In this document: positions 42,596-51,488 of the stretch, one piece after another
Layout of the letters: each line of letters opens with the position of its first letter
Numbering within the stretch: position 1 is the stretch's first letter
NCBI GenBank assembly: GCA_965197905.1
Contig: CBDAOB010000004.1
Coordinates: 1,184,001-1,248,000 of the forward strand
From: Candidatus Latescibacterota bacterium
GTDB lineage: Bacteria; Latescibacterota; UBA2968; UBA8231
Direction: 5' to 3'
Length of the DNA stretch: 64,000 bases
The notes under the pieces: model-generated
What the model was told of the DNA's origin: nothing
Seen by the model: the letters and a program-made list of their open reading frames with translations, nothing else
Database searches by the model: none
Program-made: the position numbers and the translations under genes

Positions 42596-43942
42596 CTAGT
42601 ACTTGTAATGTTCCGGCTTGAACGGCCCTTTCGTCGAAACCCCCAGGTAGCTCGCCTGGTCCTTGCCTAGTTTTTCGAGCTTGATCCCGAGTTTCTTCAG
42701 ATGTATCCGCGCCACCTGCTCGTCCAGCTGCTTCGGCAACCGGTGTACTCCGAGGTCGTATTTCTTGTTGAACAGCTCGGTCTGCGCCAAAACCTGATTG
42801 GCGAACGACATGGACATCACAAACGAGGGATGTCCGGTGGCGCAGCCAAGGTTCACCAGGCGGCCCTCGGCCAGGAGGATCAGGCATCGACCGTCGGAGA
42901 AGGTGTATTTGTCCACCTGCGGTTTGATTTCTGACTTTTTCACTCCCTTCACATTTCCCAGAGCCTCCACCTGAATCTCCACGTCGAAGTGGCCGATGTT
43001 ACAGACGATGGCACCGTCTTTCATTTTCTGCATGTGATCGACGGTGATGACATCCTTACAGCCGGTGGTGGTGACGAAGATATCGCCTTCGCGCACCGCC
43101 TGATTCATCGGCATGACCTCGATGCCTTCCATCGCCGCCTGCAACGCACAGATCGGATCCACCTCGGTCACAATCACGCGTGCTCCGAACCCCTTCATCG
43201 ATTGGACGCACCCCTTTCCCACATCTCCATAACCGGCCACCACCGCGACCTTGCCAGCGGTCATGATGTCGGTTGCCCGCTTGATACCGTCCAGCAGCGA
43301 TTCTCGACAGCCGTAGAGGTTGTCGAACTTCGATTTGGTGACGCTGTCATTGACGTTTATGGCGGGGATCTTCAAGGCGCCGTCATCAAGCATGCGATAC
43401 AGATTATGGACTCCGGTGGTGGTTTCCTCCGATACACCGCGAATCCCGGAAAGCAGATCGGGGCGTTTCTCGTGGACCCAAGCGGTTAGATCGCCGCCGT
43501 CGTCGAGGATCATGTTGGGTCCCTCACCTTTGGGCCACAGCAGCGTTTGGTCGGTGCACCACCAGTACTCTTTTTCCGACTCGCCCTTCCAGGCGAAAAC
43601 GGGCACTCCGGCTTTGGCGATCGCCGCCGCAGCGTGGTCCTGGGTAGAGAAGATGTTGCAGGAAGCCCAGCGCACCTTCGCCCCGAGGGCGATCAAGGTC
43701 TCGATCAGCACCGCTGTCTGGATGGTCATATGCAGTGACCCGGCGATCCGCGCGCCCTTGAGCGGCTGCTTCTTACCGTAGTCTCGACGCAGGGCCATGA
43801 GACCGGGCATCTCCTTTTCCGCCAGCAGGATCTCCTCGCGGCCCCAATGGGCTTGGGAAATATCCGCTACCTTGTAGTCGGCTTTACCATTTCTCCCTGC
43901 CCGGGTTTTATTAGAAACGGAAGGGGCTGTTTTTGTCGCCAT
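42596..43942 (-). CDS. ahcY: Adenosylhomocysteinase
   Basis: [42 protein letters not shown] motifs. Confidence 0.98.
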
Positions 43943-44865
43943 CGTTTTTGTCCTTTGAAGGTTATGAGTTTGAGCGCAGCCGCCTCTCCGACGACCTCGC
44001 TTTCGGCAATGGTGAATCGCAGTCGCTTGAGCCAGCCTGAGACCTCCTCCGGATGGAACCCCAGCCAGAGATCTGCCAGCTGCTCCCGCAAGCTTTCATC
44101 GGTATGTTGGTGAAGATCGACAATGGTGATCCAGCCGCCTGGCTTGAGCACCCGGTGGGCCTCGGCGAGGGCGGCGGCAGGTCGAGACAAATGGTGCAGC
44201 ACCATGCACAGGACCACCGCGTCGACCTCCGCGTCCGCCACCGGCAGCTGTTCCAGATCTCCCAGGCGGAAATCGCACCGTTCCCGTTGCCCACCGAGGG
44301 TTTCGCGAGCCAGCTCGAGCATGGTTGGGGAAGCGTCCACGGCGATCACCTGCCGCGCTCGCTGAACCAGCGCGGGCAGTAAAAGGCCGGACCCGGCGCC
44401 CATGTCTAAAATCGCGTCGCTCCGTTCCGGCAGCAGGGAAAGCGCGACGCGACGGTAATATTGGCCGTTCAGGCTGCGATGTTCGAGATCGGTCGGCTCG
44501 CTGATGTTGTCGAAAAACTGTCGCGTCTGCTCTTTTCGGCGTTCGATAGCCCCCTCGAGACGCTGGAGGTCCGCTTCGAAGTCGGGCACCGTGCGTTCGT
44601 GGCGTTTGAGATGGACGAGGGTATCGCCGACGAGGCCGGCCGTGTCCTGGTCGTTCCATTGATAATAGATCCAGGTCCCTTCTCTCCGGTTATTGATGAG
44701 CTCAGCGTCAGCGAGAATCTTCAGATGCCTGGAAACCCTGCTTTGCCCCATCTGGAGAATATCCTGGAGTTCGTTTACGTTGAGCGCGGCGCGTGACAAT
44801 AACCGCATGAGGCGCAGCCGGGAATTATCGGCGAGCGCTTTATAAAGCCGAAGAGAATCGGTCAT
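43867..44865 (-). CDS. sahR: ArsR-HTH + SAM-methyltransferase regulator (SahR-like)
   Basis: [37 protein letters not shown]; located directly upstream of ahcY. Confidence 0.8.
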
Positions 44866-44873
44866 AGGTCGAT

Positions 44874-44921
44874 AAAATAAATAATGAATTGACAAATGTC
44901 AATATCAAGATATATTGATAT
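44874..44921. promoter_or_regulatory. Back-to-back sigma-70 promoters and a SahR-like operator palindrome
   Basis: TTGACA(44889-94)AA TGTCAA(44897-902); minus-strand -10 TATTTT 17 nt away; plus-strand TATATT at 44911-16; palindrome ATATCAA-GATATA-TTGATAT at 44902-44921. Confidence 0.75.
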
Positions 44922-45034
44922 ATCGTCCGTTTTGGGAAGTTCGCCCCGAGGAATCTGCCCATGTTCGCCGTCTCGACTCGCCGTCGCAGAAGGGAACCCA
45001 GGATTGGGAGCTTGCACGCCTACAGGAGGGGATC

Positions 45035-46033
45035 GTGAAACCGTTGTCGGAACGAATGGAGGATTCTCAGCCGCTGGTATATGACGGGGGATTTGGGGCC
45101 GGGCTTTTCGATCGGGGGGTTGAATTGACCAACAGCTCGTTGGCAAATCAACTACATCCAAAAACCGTGGTTGACATCCATCGCGACTACATCGAGGCCG
45201 GGGCCGAGGCCATAGGCACAAATACCTTCGTCGCCTCGGCATTACATCTCGAGATGGCGGGGAAGAACGAAAATGACGTGGAGCCCATCGTGTGCACGGC
45301 CATCGAGCACGCGCGGCTGGCCGTCGAGCAGAGCAAGAAGCAGGTCTACGTCGCCGGCTCCATCGGACCCTCCCCAGGAGCCATCGAAACAGACGCTGGG
45401 GACACCGTATTCGGCATTGCCAATGACAAAGCCCGTGCGGCGCACGAGAAGGTGGCAGCGGTCATGGCGGACAGCGGCGTCGATTTTTTTTGCGTTGAAA
45501 CCCAGTTCTCGGCCAACGAAGCCGCCCTCATTGTCGACGTTTTGCGGCAGTTCGAGCTGCCCATTGCGGTCAATCTGACCTATAAACACACCAAGAATCG
45601 TAAGACGGGAGAGATTGTCTACAAGACGGATTGGGGTCACGGGCCCGCCGATCTGGTCGAGATTCTAGGCCAGGGCGAGTGTGCCGGGGGGGTCGATCTG
45701 CTGGAATACGTCGACATACTGGGGACCAACTGCGGGGCCGAATCGACCCTGGTCGAGCACACCGGAATGCCGTACGCAGTCCTGGCAACGGTTCAGTTGC
45801 GGGAAGCGCTGGAGGGCCGCAGCATCGCCGGCAAGAGAATCATGGCGTACCCGAATGCCGGGGTGGCTCGCCTGGACAAGGTGACGCGGCGCACCTATTA
45901 CGCGCAAAGCCCCGAAGAGATGGCGAGGCACATTCCGGCGCTAGTGGATGAAGGCGCGTTTGTTGTGGGGGGATGTTGCGGCACCGGTCCGGAGCATATC
46001 AGCGCGTTCTGCGGTGCTTTGACCACCTCCTAG
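45035..46033 (+). CDS. Homocysteine S-methyltransferase domain protein (stand-alone MetH N-module-like)
   Basis: DGGFG, H..YIEAGA...TNTF, AGSIGP, GTNCG, YPNAG, GGCCGT.PEHI motifs; GTG start after AGGAGG. Confidence 0.88.
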   Translation: MKPLSERMEDSQPLVYDGGFGAGLFDRGVELTNSSLANQLHPKTVVDIHRDYIEAGAEAIGTNTFVASALHLEMAGKNENDVEPIVCTAIEHARLAVEQSKKQVYVAGSIGPSPGAIETDAGDTVFGIANDKARAAHEKVAAVMADSGVDFFCVETQFSANEAALIVDVLRQFELPIAVNLTYKHTKNRKTGEIVYKTDWGHGPADLVEILGQGECAGGVDLLEYVDILGTNCGAESTLVEHTGMPYAVLATVQLREALEGRSIAGKRIMAYPNAGVARLDKVTRRTYYAQSPEEMARHIPALVDEGAFVVGGCCGTGPEHISAFCGALTTS

Positions 46034-47236: not shown

Positions 47237-48625
47237 TCAGGATTCCTTCAACGCCGCCACCAAATCCATGATTGCCTCCTTGCCACTGCCGAAGAACATC
47301 AAGGTGTTGTCGGCTGCAAAGAGTGGATTCGGTACGCCGGCAAATCCGGGACTCAAGCTGCGTTTTATCACCACAACGGTGCGCGCTTTGTCTACGTCGA
47401 GAATGGGCATGCCGGCGATCGGACCACCATCGTTTTCCCGCGCCACCGGGTTCACCACGTCGTTGGCGCCGATCACCAGCGCCAGGTCGGTTTGTGTGAA
47501 GGTGGAGTTGACCTCCCGCATCTCTTTCAGCTTCTCGTAGGGCACCTCAGCTTCAGCAAGGAGAACGTTCATATGTCCAGGCATGCGGCCGGCGACGGGA
47601 TGGATGGCGAAGTCCACTTCGGTGCCGCGGCTCTCCAGCAGATTGGCGAGGTCGCGGACGGCGTGCTGCGCCTGGGCAACCGCCATGCCGTATCCGGGGA
47701 CGACCACCACGCGGCGTGCCGTTTCGAACAACATGGCGACCTCCTCAGCAGAGGTCGATTTCACCTTGCCGGCGTAGATATCCCCTCCCGGCTCTCCACT
47801 CCCAACAGCACCCACGGCGGCAAAGAACACATTGCCGATGGAACGGTTCATCGCCCAGCACATGATTTGGGTCAGAATCAAACCCGACGCCCCGACCAGC
47901 GAACCAGCGATGATCAACACGTTGTTGTCGAGCACGAAACCGGTTGATGCAGCTGCCAGACCCGAACAAGAATTCAACAGGGCGATGACCACCGGCATGT
48001 CGGCTCCGCCAATGGGTGTTACAAGCAGAATTCCCAGGGCCGACGCGACGGCTGCCATGATCCAGAACCAGTCACTGTTTGCAGGTTCCAGGACCAGGAG
48101 CACCGCCGTTGCGATGCTGGCCACGGCGAGCAGTAGGTTCAAGACGTGGCGCCCGGGGAACACGTGAGGGTTTCCCGATATCAACTCCTGGAGCTTGGTA
48201 AAAGCGACCAAGCTACCCCAAAAGGTGATGGCGCCTATGATGCCCGACGCAGCGGTGGCTATAGAAACCTGGGTGGTGATCGTGGTGGCCGTAGAGTTAC
48301 TCTCCACCAAAGCGGCACCCGCAACCAGAACCGAAGCCACACCACCAAATCCGTTGAACAGTGCCACCAGTTGCGGCATCGCCGTCATTTGAATCTTGAG
48401 AGCGAACAGGGCACCGATAGCACCGCCGACGACCAGCCCAACAAGGATCAGCTCGAACTCGAGGATCCTCGAATCGACAACCGTGGCAACAACCGCCAGA
48501 AGCATTGCCAAGGCGCCGAGCAGATTCCCGCGCACCGCGGTCCGTGGATGGGTGAGTCCCTTGAGACCGAAGATGAAGAGTGCGGACGCCACCAGATACG
48601 CGGCGTTGATAAGTGTCGAGCTCAT
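47237..48625 (-). CDS. pntB: NAD(P) transhydrogenase beta subunit
   Basis: MPQLVALFNGFGG, GGADMPVVI, VPGYGMAVAQAQH, HPVAGRMPGHMNVLLAEA motifs. Confidence 0.97.
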   Translation of the reverse strand: MSSTLINAAYLVASALFIFGLKGLTHPRTAVRGNLLGALAMLLAVVATVVDSRILEFELILVGLVVGGAIGALFALKIQMTAMPQLVALFNGFGGVASVLVAGAALVESNSTATTITTQVSIATAASGIIGAITFWGSLVAFTKLQELISGNPHVFPGRHVLNLLLAVASIATAVLLVLEPANSDWFWIMAAVASALGILLVTPIGGADMPVVIALLNSCSGLAAASTGFVLDNNVLIIAGSLVGASGLILTQIMCWAMNRSIGNVFFAAVGAVGSGEPGGDIYAGKVKSTSAEEVAMLFETARRVVVVPGYGMAVAQAQHAVRDLANLLESRGTEVDFAIHPVAGRMPGHMNVLLAEAEVPYEKLKEMREVNSTFTQTDLALVIGANDVVNPVARENDGGPIAGMPILDVDKARTVVVIKRSLSPGFAGVPNPLFAADNTLMFFGSGKEAIMDLVAALKES

Positions 48626-48630
48626 GCCGT

Positions 48631-48915
48631 TTAGTTTCGCCTCTTGAACATGCCCAGCATTCGATGGGTGACCAGAAACCCGCCAACCACGTTCACGGTC
48701 GCGAATATGACAGCGGCGAGACCGAGCCAGGTGGTGAGCTCGGGCCGGTCGACCCCGGCGGCCAGGAGCGCACCTATCAGTGTGATACCGGAGATGGCAT
48801 TGGAGCCGGACATGAGGGGCGTGTGCAGGGTGGGCGGAATCTTGGTTATCACCTCGAAGCCCACGAATACGGCGAGGATGAAAATCGTCAATGTCGTCAC
48901 GAAGGTTTCCATCAT
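48631..48915 (-). CDS. pntA: NAD(P) transhydrogenase alpha subunit, part 2 (membrane)
   Basis: LHTPLMSGSNAISG, NVVGGFLVT.RML.MF motifs. Confidence 0.95.
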   Translation of the reverse strand: MMETFVTTLTIFILAVFVGFEVITKIPPTLHTPLMSGSNAISGITLIGALLAAGVDRPELTTWLGLAAVIFATVNVVGGFLVTHRMLGMFKRRN

Positions 48916-48925
48916 TCCTCCTCTG

Positions 48926-50065
48926 CTAACTGTGTATCAGTGGATGGACGATCTTGCCACCGCGCGCAACAAGAGTTCCTGATGTTATCTCATCCTCCTC
49001 ATCGAGGGTCAGCTCTCCCTCCCTCAATAGATGCTGCACGAACGTGGATAGATTGTGGGCAAACATCTGGCTCGCGTGCTTGGGAATGGTAGAAGGCAGA
49101 TTGGTGGGACCCAGGACGATGACACCGTCGTGTTGAATCCGTTCATCAGGTCGGGTCGATTCGCAATTCCCCCCGCGCTCGGCTGCCAGGTCAACGACGA
49201 CCGATCCGGGAGCCATGCGGCTCACGGTTTCGGCCGTGATTAACAGCGGCGCCGGCGTGCCCGGAACAGCGGCGGTGGTAATCACCACATCGCTCTCTGC
49301 CACTACCTCACCCAGGGCTGCCCGTTGGCGCTGGTAAAACCCCTCGTCTTGCGCCACGGCGTATCCCCCGGCGTCCTCGCTGTCGGCGGCGTCGAGGCCG
49401 AGGTCCACGAAGCGAGCACCGAGACTCTCCACCTGTTCCCTCACTGCGGGCCGTAGATCGTAGGCTTGGACAACCGCGCCGAGACGGCGAGAGGTGGCGA
49501 TCGCCTGAAGTCCGGCAACACCCGCCCCCACCACTAGGACCTTGGCGGGGGTCAGCGTGCCCGCGGCCGTCATCATCAACGGGAAGATGCGCGGCAATTC
49601 CGTGGCAGCCATAAGCACCGCCTTGTACCCGGCCAGAGTTGCCATGGCCGATAGCACATCCATGCTCTGTGCCCGGGTGATGCGCGGCATGAGTTCCAAT
49701 GCCAGAAGGGTGACTCCGGTTTCCGCGAGCTCCCGAATCTCCCTCACGGCGGAGAGCGGTTCGCACATGCCGATCACCACCTGTTCGGCGCGCATGTGTT
49801 GCAGATCCTGGCGTCCGGCATCCGGATTGGCGCCGTAGGTCCGCACCTGCAGAATCATATCAGCTTGCGCGAAGAGTTCCGTTCGGGAAGCGGCCAGCGA
49901 CGCACCCTTTTGCTGGTACGCTTCGTTTGGAAACCCGGCCCGCAGACCGGCATCTGCCTCCACCATAGCATCTATCCCGGCCTCGGATAGGGAAGGCAGT
50001 GAGTCGGGTATGAGAGCTACTCGGAGTTCTCCGGAATAGGTCTCGGCGGGAATACCTGCGATCAT
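48926..50065 (-). CDS. pntA: NAD(P) transhydrogenase alpha subunit, part 1 (domain I)
   Basis: PRITRAQSMDVLS, GAGVAGLQAIAT, DLAAERGGNC motifs. Confidence 0.95.
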   Translation of the reverse strand: MIAGIPAETYSGELRVALIPDSLPSLSEAGIDAMVEADAGLRAGFPNEAYQQKGASLAASRTELFAQADMILQVRTYGANPDAGRQDLQHMRAEQVVIGMCEPLSAVREIRELAETGVTLLALELMPRITRAQSMDVLSAMATLAGYKAVLMAATELPRIFPLMMTAAGTLTPAKVLVVGAGVAGLQAIATSRRLGAVVQAYDLRPAVREQVESLGARFVDLGLDAADSEDAGGYAVAQDEGFYQRQRAALGEVVAESDVVITTAAVPGTPAPLLITAETVSRMAPGSVVVDLAAERGGNCESTRPDERIQHDGVIVLGPTNLPSTIPKHASQMFAHNLSTFVQHLLREGELTLDEEDEITSGTLVARGGKIVHPLIHS

Positions 50066-50231
50066 CTAATTTTGGTCTTGTAGGAGTACGGTTAGGCGGA
50101 AACAACCAAGCTGGATAAGATAGGTAATGGTTTGCGAGTGACCACCCCGTAACGTGGCAGAGGTGAAACTGCCGGTGCACAAAAAAACCGCCACATCGCT
50201 GAGCGGTCGAAAGGAATAAACATTGAGGCAC

Positions 50232-50276
50232 AAAAAAACGGCTGTGACGGGAACGCTCTAGAATCCGTCACAGCCG
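50232..50276 (-). terminator. Intrinsic terminator
   Basis: Perfect 12-bp stem CGGCTGTGACGG/CCGTCACAGCCG followed by T7 on the minus strand; a weaker hairpin plus T7 follows at 50181-50207. Confidence 0.9.
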
Positions 50277-50519
50277 CAGGCAGTTGTCCGGCGGCATTGT
50301 TCCCTCCTCTTTGGGGTGCCTGTAACGGTCTATCAACCCACGTCCGCGGCCCTGTGTTACTCGGTAACAACCATTGCCTGCGCCATTCACCTCGTGCGGG
50401 ATGTGCATCCCAGGTCAGGTGAACTGCCTGACATCTACTTACGGGTCCAATGTCACGCAGGCTACGGTTGAACGGACCCTTTCGGACGGCGACCGTTCGC
50501 GTGATAGCTTTGCGGCTAC
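50232..50519 (-). ncRNA. Unassigned ~290-nt structured RNA (riboswitch/attenuator or independent ncRNA)
   Basis: Bounded by a promoter and a terminator; at least 7 complementary stem pairs found by eye; no credible long ORF. Confidence 0.7.
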
Positions 50520-50525
50520 ATGTTT

Positions 50526-50554
50526 ATTCTAGCGGGTTGACCGGCAAGAGTCAA
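50526..50554 (-). promoter_or_regulatory. Sigma-70 promoter
   Basis: TTGACT (50554-50549), 17-nt spacer, TAGAAT (50531-50526), with an A/T tract upstream. Confidence 0.8.
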
Positions 50555-50636: not shown

Positions 50637-51488
50637 TCATCCGGCGATCTCGAGGTTCGCCATTTCGTCGCAGCGGGCAGGATCCCTGAGCTTGCTGAGC
50701 GCCCGCTCTTTGAGCTGGCGCACGCGCTCGCGAGTGAGGTCTAGCGAAACGCCGATCTGCTCGAGCGTCATCGGCTCCTCTCCGTTCAGACCGTAGTAGG
50801 AGCTGATGATGTAACGCTCGCGATTGTCCAGACAAAACAGCGTGGATTCTATCTGTGTGCGGACCTCTACGGTCGCAACACCGGCGTCGGGAGCTGCTTG
50901 CGTCTCATCTACGAGCACGTCCATCAGGCTGCGATCGTCGTCCGCTTCGAAGATTTCGTCGAGCGAACAAACATCCCGACCCCGGTGAATCGTATCCATC
51001 ACATCCGCGGCCGACATATTCAGTTCCGCCGCAACCGCTTCGATATCGGGCGCGCCTTCTTGCCCCTGTCCCAATCGGTTGGACACCTTGGCGATCTCGT
51101 TGAGCAGGGATATCCGATTGGTCGGCAAACGTACTGTGCGCGACTGTTCGGCCAGGGTCTGGAGTATGGACTGGCGAATCCACCAAACGGCGTAGGAGAT
51201 GAATTTGAACCCCCTCGTCCCGTCGAACCGATCGGCGGCGGTCAGGAGACCGAGGTTGCCGGCACTTATGAGTTCGGGAAAGCTGAGACCTCTGCCCTGA
51301 TACCCTTTTGCCACGTCGACGACAAAACGCAGATTGGCGTTGACCAGCTCATCGCGCGCCGCGCCATCCCCCCTTTGGATTTTGGCGGAGAGCTCTACCT
51401 CGCGCTCCCGCGTAAGCGGTTTGGAATCGACGATATCATCGAAATATAGCCTGAGGGAATCCGCGTCGTTCTTTGAATGCTCTACCAA
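50637..51488 (-). CDS. RNA polymerase sigma-70 factor (RpoD/RpoS-like, no region 1.1)
   Basis: ANLRFVV.VAK.Y, FKFISYAVWWIRQSI, TLEQIG..L.LTRERVRQ motifs. Confidence 0.92.
   Translation of the reverse strand: MVEHSKNDADSLRLYFDDIVDSKPLTREREVELSAKIQRGDGAARDELVNANLRFVVDVAKGYQGRGLSFPELISAGNLGLLTAADRFDGTRGFKFISYAVWWIRQSILQTLAEQSRTVRLPTNRISLLNEIAKVSNRLGQGQEGAPDIEAVAAELNMSAADVMDTIHRGRDVCSLDEIFEADDDRSLMDVLVDETQAAPDAGVATVEVRTQIESTLFCLDNRERYIISSYYGLNGEEPMTLEQIGVSLDLTRERVRQLKERALSKLRDPARCDEMANLEIAG

Follow-up and report, generated by a model that had tools for sequence, protein, structure and literature searches.

The locus analyzed in this work lies in a window (the whole stretch of 64,000 nucleotides under study) of a Candidatus Latescibacterota genome. 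It raises the question of whether a transcription unit found on the minus strand (50554-50232), between a sigma-70-family gene and the transhydrogenase genes pntA1/pntA2/pntB, serves the latter or acts on its own. The initial annotation had described an uncatalogued structured RNA, complete with promoter and terminator, and had read it as a transhydrogenase riboswitch or, as a fallback, a stand-alone noncoding RNA. The description and the fallback reading are supported by the data reported below: the RNA family is uncatalogued and conserved, and the copy of the window is a real folded RNA possessing its own promoter and terminator. Its best-kept part, a Shine-Dalgarno (SD) site followed by a start codon and two proline codons, had been overlooked.

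The RNA of the window and its transcription

The features of the unit and of its neighbours, in the order of transcription, are as follows (P1a, P1b and P1c are the three segments of the closing stem).

50637..51488, minus strand: sigma-70-family factor gene, a neighbour outside the unit; best profile RpoS, under its cut-off
50549..50554, minus strand: sigma-70-type -35 hexamer TTGACT, a sequence match
50526..50531, minus strand: -10 hexamer TAGAAT, after a 17-nt spacer; transcript start expected at about 50520
50504..50519, minus strand: 5' hairpin; in the alignment, none seen beyond this genus
50474..50497, minus strand: closing stem, 5' strand (P1a 50497-91, 2-nt loop, P1b 50488-83, AAAG bulge 50482-79, P1c 50478-74)
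50356..50470, minus strand: variable inner domain (interrupted stem 50470-56/50382-68, terminal hairpins 50455-29 and 50423-50386)
50368-56, minus strand: small hairpin of the inner domain
50352-41, minus strand: closing stem, 3' strand, first part (P1c 50352-48, single purine, P1b 50346-41)
50340-24, minus strand: closing stem, 3' strand, second part (conserved loop strand UGGGUUGAUA 50340-31, P1a 50330-24)
50303..50309, minus strand: Shine-Dalgarno site GAGGAGG
50268..50297, minus strand: mini-ORF MPPDNCLRL-stop, 9 codons, whose last codons and stop form the terminator's 5' arm
50232..50277, minus strand: intrinsic terminator (13-pair hairpin 50277-65/50250-38, then U7; -25.0 kcal/mol)
50181..50207, minus strand: second terminator-like hairpin, between the RNA and pntA (GCGA loop, U7; -10.2 kcal/mol)
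48926..50065, minus strand: pntA, alpha subunit part 1, a neighbour outside the unit
48631-48915: pntA part 2, downstream of part 1
47237-48625: pntB, downstream of pntA part 2

The TTGACT-17-TAGAAT promoter (50554-50526) was confirmed, and a TTG-led promoter match lies 230-280 nt ahead of the start codon in most full-length relatives. The stems first proposed (the 5' hairpin, P1, CGUCCG/CGGACG, 50470-56/50382-68 and the inner hairpins) are likewise all in place, to which a third closing helix that had been missed, GGUCC 50478-74/GGGCC 50352-48, has to be added. The terminator is present too, but with 13 pairs rather than 12; a simple terminator scan with a loop limit of 8 did not list it, its hairpin loop being of 14 nt. 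As a whole, the 294-nt fold is more stable than expected (z = -2.97), only one of 200 shuffled sequences being equally stable.

Two further pairings that had been proposed fared less well. The pseudoknot involving GACCCG is to be discarded as a family trait, its strand occurring in just two of the 22 full-length relatives; since the same count (2/22) holds for the CGUAA segment, neither of them is a feature of the family. As for the antiterminator, a 9-bp pairing does exist in this copy (p 0.03 against shuffles), but a conserved switch is not borne out: the pairing beats shuffles (p <0.05) in just six of the 28 copies. Forcing it in the window's copy costs 4.4 kcal/mol (-108.4 versus -112.8 for the closed stem plus terminator).

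The RNA is apparently expressed. Ten sequencing runs match the stretch, four of which are recorded as RNA (sponge metatranscriptomes, each holding 22-23% of its words); these runs were found by matching with this very stretch and all come from one study. In each of the three RNA runs examined out of these four, one isolated contig without differences covers the unit (50265-50512, 50264-50511 and 50279-50510, at depths of 54, 36 and 52, respectively); together they span 50264-50512 and include the mini-ORF, being unstranded and giving neither true ends nor levels. They fit a discrete RNA that includes the mini-ORF. No RNA contig from the three runs covers the 5' part of pntA, an absence that says nothing on its expression, and the sigma gene is matched only by pieces 88-92% alike, from other sigma genes. 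A run of unrecorded type covers the whole stretch in one piece at a depth of 10 and may be the one from which this DNA derives.

Distribution and conserved structure of the family

Searches with covariance models retrieved 46 related loci, distributed over 42 genomes that all belong to a single class; from the depositors' labels, this class is probably part of Latescibacterota. The number of loci is a lower bound, since 106 of the 132 class genomes were model-searched and 36 of the 76 home-family genomes under a strict filter only. The loci comprise 27 full-length copies, eight whose 5' domain is decayed, diverged or missing, four consisting of the module alone, and seven short forms with another 3' part. 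In its own genome, the element is in single copy (nhmmer and BLAST).

The way in which these loci were collected deserves some detail. BLAST against 41 genomes matched six, mainly over the last 80-100 bases. With strict filters, 13 strong members emerged from the 76 family genomes through the models R1 and R2. One further member, in another family, came from a 5'-core pattern; 30 of the 42 matches of this pattern were checked, yielding seven members, one 5'-half copy (L007) and 22 that were dropped. R2, applied to 40 other genomes, gave matches in 16 of the 30 belonging to the same class and in none of the ten outside it. A third model, R3, added the short forms in the home family and seven loci in family f2; in other classes of the phylum it gave three weak matches in two of 26 genomes, all within long frames and lacking an SD site. 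In 40 further home-family genomes, 35 of which "matched", mostly as 12-20-bit noise, 14 loci were inspected and six new ones kept (besides G011 and G024, already counted); no full-length copy was found in these 40 genomes, nor in six of genus g22. The weak matches L154, L255 and L200-L205 were left out of the count. An exact pattern, which is blind to diverged forms, gave 27 matches over all GTDB species genomes, 12 of which are members by R2 and 15 not; the depositors label the 12 as Latescibacterota (five), Gemmatimonadota-type (six) and Planctomycetota (one). The three matches of a viral pattern scan were rejected, their spacers measuring 16-17 nt and not 12, and no member was recognised among the matches listed in a metagenome scan, which were mostly one unrelated coding sequence. 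The element is thus patchy across the class, and it is decayed in several genomes (G001, G014 and G094).

Some variants merit a mention on their own. The short form (L256, L259, L260, L262, L155, L153 and L266; genera g12, g10 and g4) consists of a promoter, a leader of about 50 nt and the SD-MPP-hairpin module, followed by a different conserved structure with a CAGAGUC...GACUCU hairpin and then a terminator. Two or three SD-ATG-hairpin modules stand in tandem in several relatives, and a tandem module was also noted in G024. L007 (1142-1660, in G002) is a second RNA copy, limited to the 5' half and provided with its own promoter, that is fused with a cold-shock (CSD) gene leader; this leader matches Rfam cspA at 42.8 bits, under the cut-off, and such a copy is absent from the window's genome. 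In nine loci, from two families (L143, L146, L006, L141, L147, L148, L149, L151 and L293), the RNA is immediately preceded by a ferritin gene (assigned by Pfam for L148 and by visible likeness for the others), hinting at an old stress-gene neighbourhood.

The comparison of the 22 full-length copies revealed that the three-segment closing stem covaries strongly. In an unfitted MAFFT alignment, 97.7% of the P1b cells, 97.3% of the P1c cells and 68% of the P1a cells are paired, the last figure reflecting in part a misalignment by one-base indels, versus 31-51% when the partners are slid, a control that a structure read off one member tends to beat. Cells changed on both sides number 38 against 13.7 in shuffles, none of the 500 shuffles reaching 38, although related sequences can beat shuffles; by a safer measure, the pairs with double changes are ten against 6.8 (2/500 shuffles), and further pair types give a weaker signal (27/500). 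The third helix, P1c, is among the two best covarying ones. RNAalifold on ten copies found P1b, P1c and the apical hairpin unaided, and the apical GGA/UCC hairpin of the inner domain recurs in relatives. Single-sequence folds are mostly a rod with two end hairpins (z from -3.8 to +0.9). Two internal loops retain unpaired bases: an AAAN run facing one purine, and the strand that in the window reads UGGGUUGAUA and whose family consensus is UGAGUUG, for which no common base-pairing partner was found in the 22 full-length copies.

No Rfam family accounts for this structure. The Rfam search gave no match at the gathering score in the whole window, and the E-value mode (E up to 10) on 541 nt gave only two chance matches, eukaryotic or archaeal; among six relative loci, only the cspA leader of L007 was recognised. 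The likeness to the raiA motif that had been suggested does not hold, since the RF03072 model, even at E 10, finds nothing at the locus and the CCGUAAG segment lacks conservation; in the window's own genome the model gives two matches elsewhere, of 11-12 bits against a cut-off of 101 bits. Neither PK1/PK2 nor the PK1-P6 linker is recognisable as a conserved feature of the 22 full-length copies, two of which have the linker-like CGUAA, and no comFC or raiA neighbours occur among the 44 neighbour proteins scanned. A stand-in for RNase P, SRP or tmRNA was rejected, all three being encoded elsewhere in the genome. The raiA motif RNA (ModT) nevertheless shares with the new RNA a stand-alone nature, a length of about 200 nt, a three-segment P1 and a GAAA run near P1, according to the accessible parts of the two sources (PMC10861870, PMC12968392), where it is also described as acting in trans with its function open, two respects in which we liken the new RNA to it. 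The two differ in their bulges, and no conserved pseudoknot pair was found in the new RNA; moreover, the same accessible parts place raiA in Bacillota and Actinomycetota and mention no SD-led mini-ORF (PMC10861870, PMC12968392). In the mainly non-subscription literature searched, we found neither a paper on Latescibacterota noncoding RNAs nor such a family among the listed works dealing with uORFs, attenuation through EF-P or small RNAs that sequester ribosomes. The main text of a preprint on intergenic RNAs by a genomic language model does not contain any of six key terms of the family, which its supplements may list.

A putative ribosome-engaging module at the 3' end

The RNA is made up of two parts: the rod domain closed by the three-segment stem, and a putative ribosome-engaging module embedding the strong SD site, the start codon, Pro-Pro, usually Asp or Gly, and a stable hairpin. 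An SD-like run lies 3-7 nt 5' of the start in all 39 loci compared. Over the 46 loci, the start codon is ATG in 43, GTG in two and TTG in one, and Pro-Pro occurs in 44 (the exceptions being MSP in G001 and MPL in G044), counts that are inflated because the starts were located with a pattern biased towards Pro-Pro and the models were seeded on the motif, the relatives not being independent either. Given this bias, a fairer test is offered by the seven later-found loci, outside the training set, in which SD, start and Pro-Pro are present in seven out of seven, with ATG in four, GTG in two and TTG in one, that is, the three usual bacterial start codons. The proline pair is followed by D, G or N (PPD, PPG or PPN) in 30 of the 44 Pro-Pro loci. 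Among the 39 loci that begin with ATG, codons 2 and 3 hardly change at their first two bases and vary at the third (A22/G17 at codon 2, where the locating pattern admitted only A or G and favoured Pro-Pro; G31/A5/T2/C1 at codon 3). As a term of comparison, MPP opens just two of the 476 long frames with a strong SD in this genome.

The distance between start and hairpin is also kept. In the window, the terminator hairpin begins at +21 from the A of the ATG and shows compensatory changes in relatives; the hairpin arm motif lies at +22 in 35 of the 39 loci and at +21 in the remaining four. An automatic fold rule recovered a hairpin at +21/+22 in 29 of the 39 loci and four of the seven held-out ones, versus 34 of 400 background starts; it misses the other ten and three, respectively, mostly via an extra outer helix. 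L293 bears a hairpin of unrelated sequence at the same +21 position.

What follows codon 4 is not conserved as a peptide: the mini-ORF spans from six to 40 codons across the class, and the frame past codon 7 is shifted by one base in four of the 39 loci. This speaks against an mRNA for a bioactive micropeptide with a structured leader, which we regard as very improbable, despite the strong SD, the true start codons and, in family f1, a length of nine codons in all 13 copies with TGA/TAG exchange. A selenocysteine (UGA-SECIS) sensor was also rejected, the UGA not being kept (TAG in G086 and G087) and the stop position varying across the class.

The genome encodes EF-P. According to the accessible parts of the respective sources, PPD, PPG and PPN rank with the strongest EF-P pause motifs, and EF-P is required for fMPPG in vitro (PMC13602936); stem-loops inhibit the ribosome when placed 11-12 nt from the first base of the P site but no longer do so at 13 nt (PMC7282821); and, without EF-P, stalling on polyproline before a terminator promotes termination, the readthrough at the pyrL terminator being cut 26-fold (PMC5021804). 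In the light of these data, the spacing between Pro-Pro and hairpin is the layout to be expected of a device telling a stalled ribosome from a passing one. A ribosome loaded on the SD would synthesize fMet-Pro-Pro and pause unless helped by EF-P. With the second proline codon in the P site (+7), the hairpin would be 14-15 nt away and shut; we propose that, the hairpin being shut during the pause, the transcript would end there with the ribosome held beside the folded domain. Once codon 4 had entered the P site (+10), the hairpin, then 11-12 nt off and at the mRNA entry, would be unwound. The RNA would in this way read the ability of the cell to clear Pro-Pro.

Which role for the RNA?

Concerning the transhydrogenase, pntA follows the RNA in three of the 46 loci, all of genus g1, and the tabulation of the downstream genes revealed that the homologs are mostly unlinked to pnt. 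Of the 27 full-length copies, 11, spread over five genera, face a convergent neighbour (G086, G087, G088, G044, G045, G072, G073, G027, G030, G064 and G063; in G030 the gene ends 650 nt off), and the other downstream genes are unrelated to each other (epimerase, DegT aminotransferase, FAD oxidoreductase, sigma factor, 2-hydroxyacid dehydrogenase). Where pntA is present (the window, G001 and G002), a second terminator parts it from the RNA, G001 carrying a different hairpin with a U-run in the place equivalent to 50207-50181. The rarity of pnt, the convergent genes and the non-conserved antiterminator imply that the idea of an NAD(P) riboswitch fails. A metabolite riboswitch toggling P1 against the antiterminator, possibly through a pyridine nucleotide, would draw on the conserved unpaired bases of the two internal loops, on the pairing found in this copy and on the NAD- or FAD-using enzymes encoded downstream of several copies; such enzymes are, however, common neighbours in any genome and the inner domain varies widely, so that we assign to this reading a minimal probability.

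Attenuation of the next gene by a leader peptide is unlikely at this locus, though less so than the former. Here a ribosome clearing Pro-Pro would cover the terminator arm and allow readthrough (into pntAB, in this case), and a stalled one would let termination occur. The overlap between the frame and the 5' arm of the terminator and the pyrL precedent argue for it. So does a Pfam-confirmed CBS-domain gene that, in six f2 loci (G069, G067, G066, the second loci of G072 and G064, and G071; loci L236, L238, L245, L254, L287 and L294), lies so close behind the hairpin that a further promoter would hardly fit; a homologous CBS-type gene, apparently frameshifted, occurs in G070. The convergent or unrelated downstream genes found elsewhere and the second terminator ahead of pntA argue against it, as does the first hairpin lacking a U-run in several f4 and g19 copies. 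In the CBS loci of f2, the best candidates judging from this arrangement, the module may represent a true EF-P-dependent attenuator, a role that is plausible there and unlikely at the locus of the window. Attenuators of the pyrL/pyrBI type have in common with the new RNA a short SD-led proline frame running into a terminator and a hairpin decided by the position of the ribosome; mgtL and mgtP of Salmonella are likewise proline-codon leaders with ribosome-coupled attenuation. Unlike pyrL/pyrBI leaders, which belong to a fixed gene, the new RNA carries a promoter and a terminator of its own, lies beside genes that change between loci or are convergent, and displays a covarying domain of 160-200 nt in front, Pro-Pro right after the start and no conserved antiterminator. 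In the dnaX and HIV gag-pol frameshift sites, too, a stable stem-loop lies at constant spacing from the codons being decoded, as described in the accessible part of PMC7282821; the new RNA differs in having neither a slippery sequence nor a downstream frame, in a hairpin that doubles as terminator and in Pro-Pro as the pause motif.

Two other readings concern proteins that might bind the RNA. 6S RNA is characterized by a large central bubble. The rod of 160-200 nt, mostly in single copy, the discrete RNA contigs and the absence of an RF00013 match at E 1 in six out of six class genomes (G000, G002, G025, G042, G061 and G069) would suit a diverged 6S/Ms1-like partner of RNA polymerase in which the mini-ORF would be an accessory; the new RNA resembles 6S/Ms1 in being a rod-like discrete RNA. 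Yet RF00013 has no match on this stretch at E 10, the largest internal loop of the rod, near its base, is of about 2-3 by 10 nt with no central bubble, and, in contrast to 6S/Ms1, a translation-initiation module is conserved. Some loci that have lost the rod, or carry another structure in its stead, still retain this module, which a 6S role would leave unaccounted for, and we consider this reading clearly improbable. Even less can be said for a decoy that would lure a repressor of SD sites (CsrA, for example) and in which the start codon would belong to the mimicked target; this appears scarcely credible: CsrA is encoded in the genome and the tandem modules of some relatives would fit, but this copy has a single GGAGG site, and the GTG/TTG starts, the silent third-position changes and the hairpin fixed at +21 point to decoding rather than to protein binding.

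The unit being often without a gene to control, we are inclined, with a confidence only slightly above an even balance, towards a stand-alone RNA of about 290 nt acting on ribosomes or tuned by them, whose Pro-Pro frame, probably dependent on EF-P, would stall a ribosome ahead of the hairpin, so as to sense or park ribosomes; that this frame is translated, that ribosomes stall on it and that the folded domain plays any part is what we infer from the sequence. Such an RNA would most likely act on translation in trans, parking ribosomes or tuning its own 3' end and lifetime, and not on pntAB. A more specific and rather doubtful version of the stand-alone RNA is that of an abundant ribosome-parking molecule, in which a 70S ribosome would be loaded on the strong SD and held as a fMet-Pro-Pro complex, braced by the hairpin near the mRNA entry, touched by the folded domain at the mRNA exit and released by EF-P; if true, this would represent an RNA-based, EF-P-reversible storage or rationing of ribosomes in slow-growing bacteria.

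To our knowledge, only a few large bacterial RNAs are both stand-alone and of unknown function. If the stand-alone reading is right, the family would embed a natural EF-P sensor or a ribosome-holding RNA, neither of which was found in the literature searched. Differently from raiA, which in the accessible parts of its sources gives no direct mechanistic handle (PMC10861870, PMC12968392), the fixed start-Pro-Pro-hairpin geometry of the new RNA predicts a specific toeprint, a dependence on EF-P and a read-out at the level of termination, which could all be measured in E. coli cell-free assays with no need for a culture of the host.

Some minor observations concern the surrounding genes. No 9-of-12 match to a separate pntA promoter was found and an own promoter of pntA could not be fixed; upstream of pntA there is a conserved GGGTGGTC block together with a TATCTT run. 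In the pntA leader (50060-50150, minus strand), the GGGTGGTC and GCTTGGTT blocks are kept between G000 and G001 and are a possible promoter or operator candidate; the ATG of pntA has no clear SD in front. The sigma genes lying beside the element in G042 and G071 are just 46-50% identical to that of the window, less than many of its own paralogues, so that no link with the sigma gene is claimed; the genome harbors about a dozen further RpoD/RpoS-like sigma factor loci, sharing 42-68% identity with the 50637-51488 gene. Lastly, the region 42596-46033 of the window, whose genes were named by reading the translations, contains an ArsR-methyltransferase gene ahead of an adenosylhomocysteinase-like gene and a divergent homocysteine methyltransferase-like gene.
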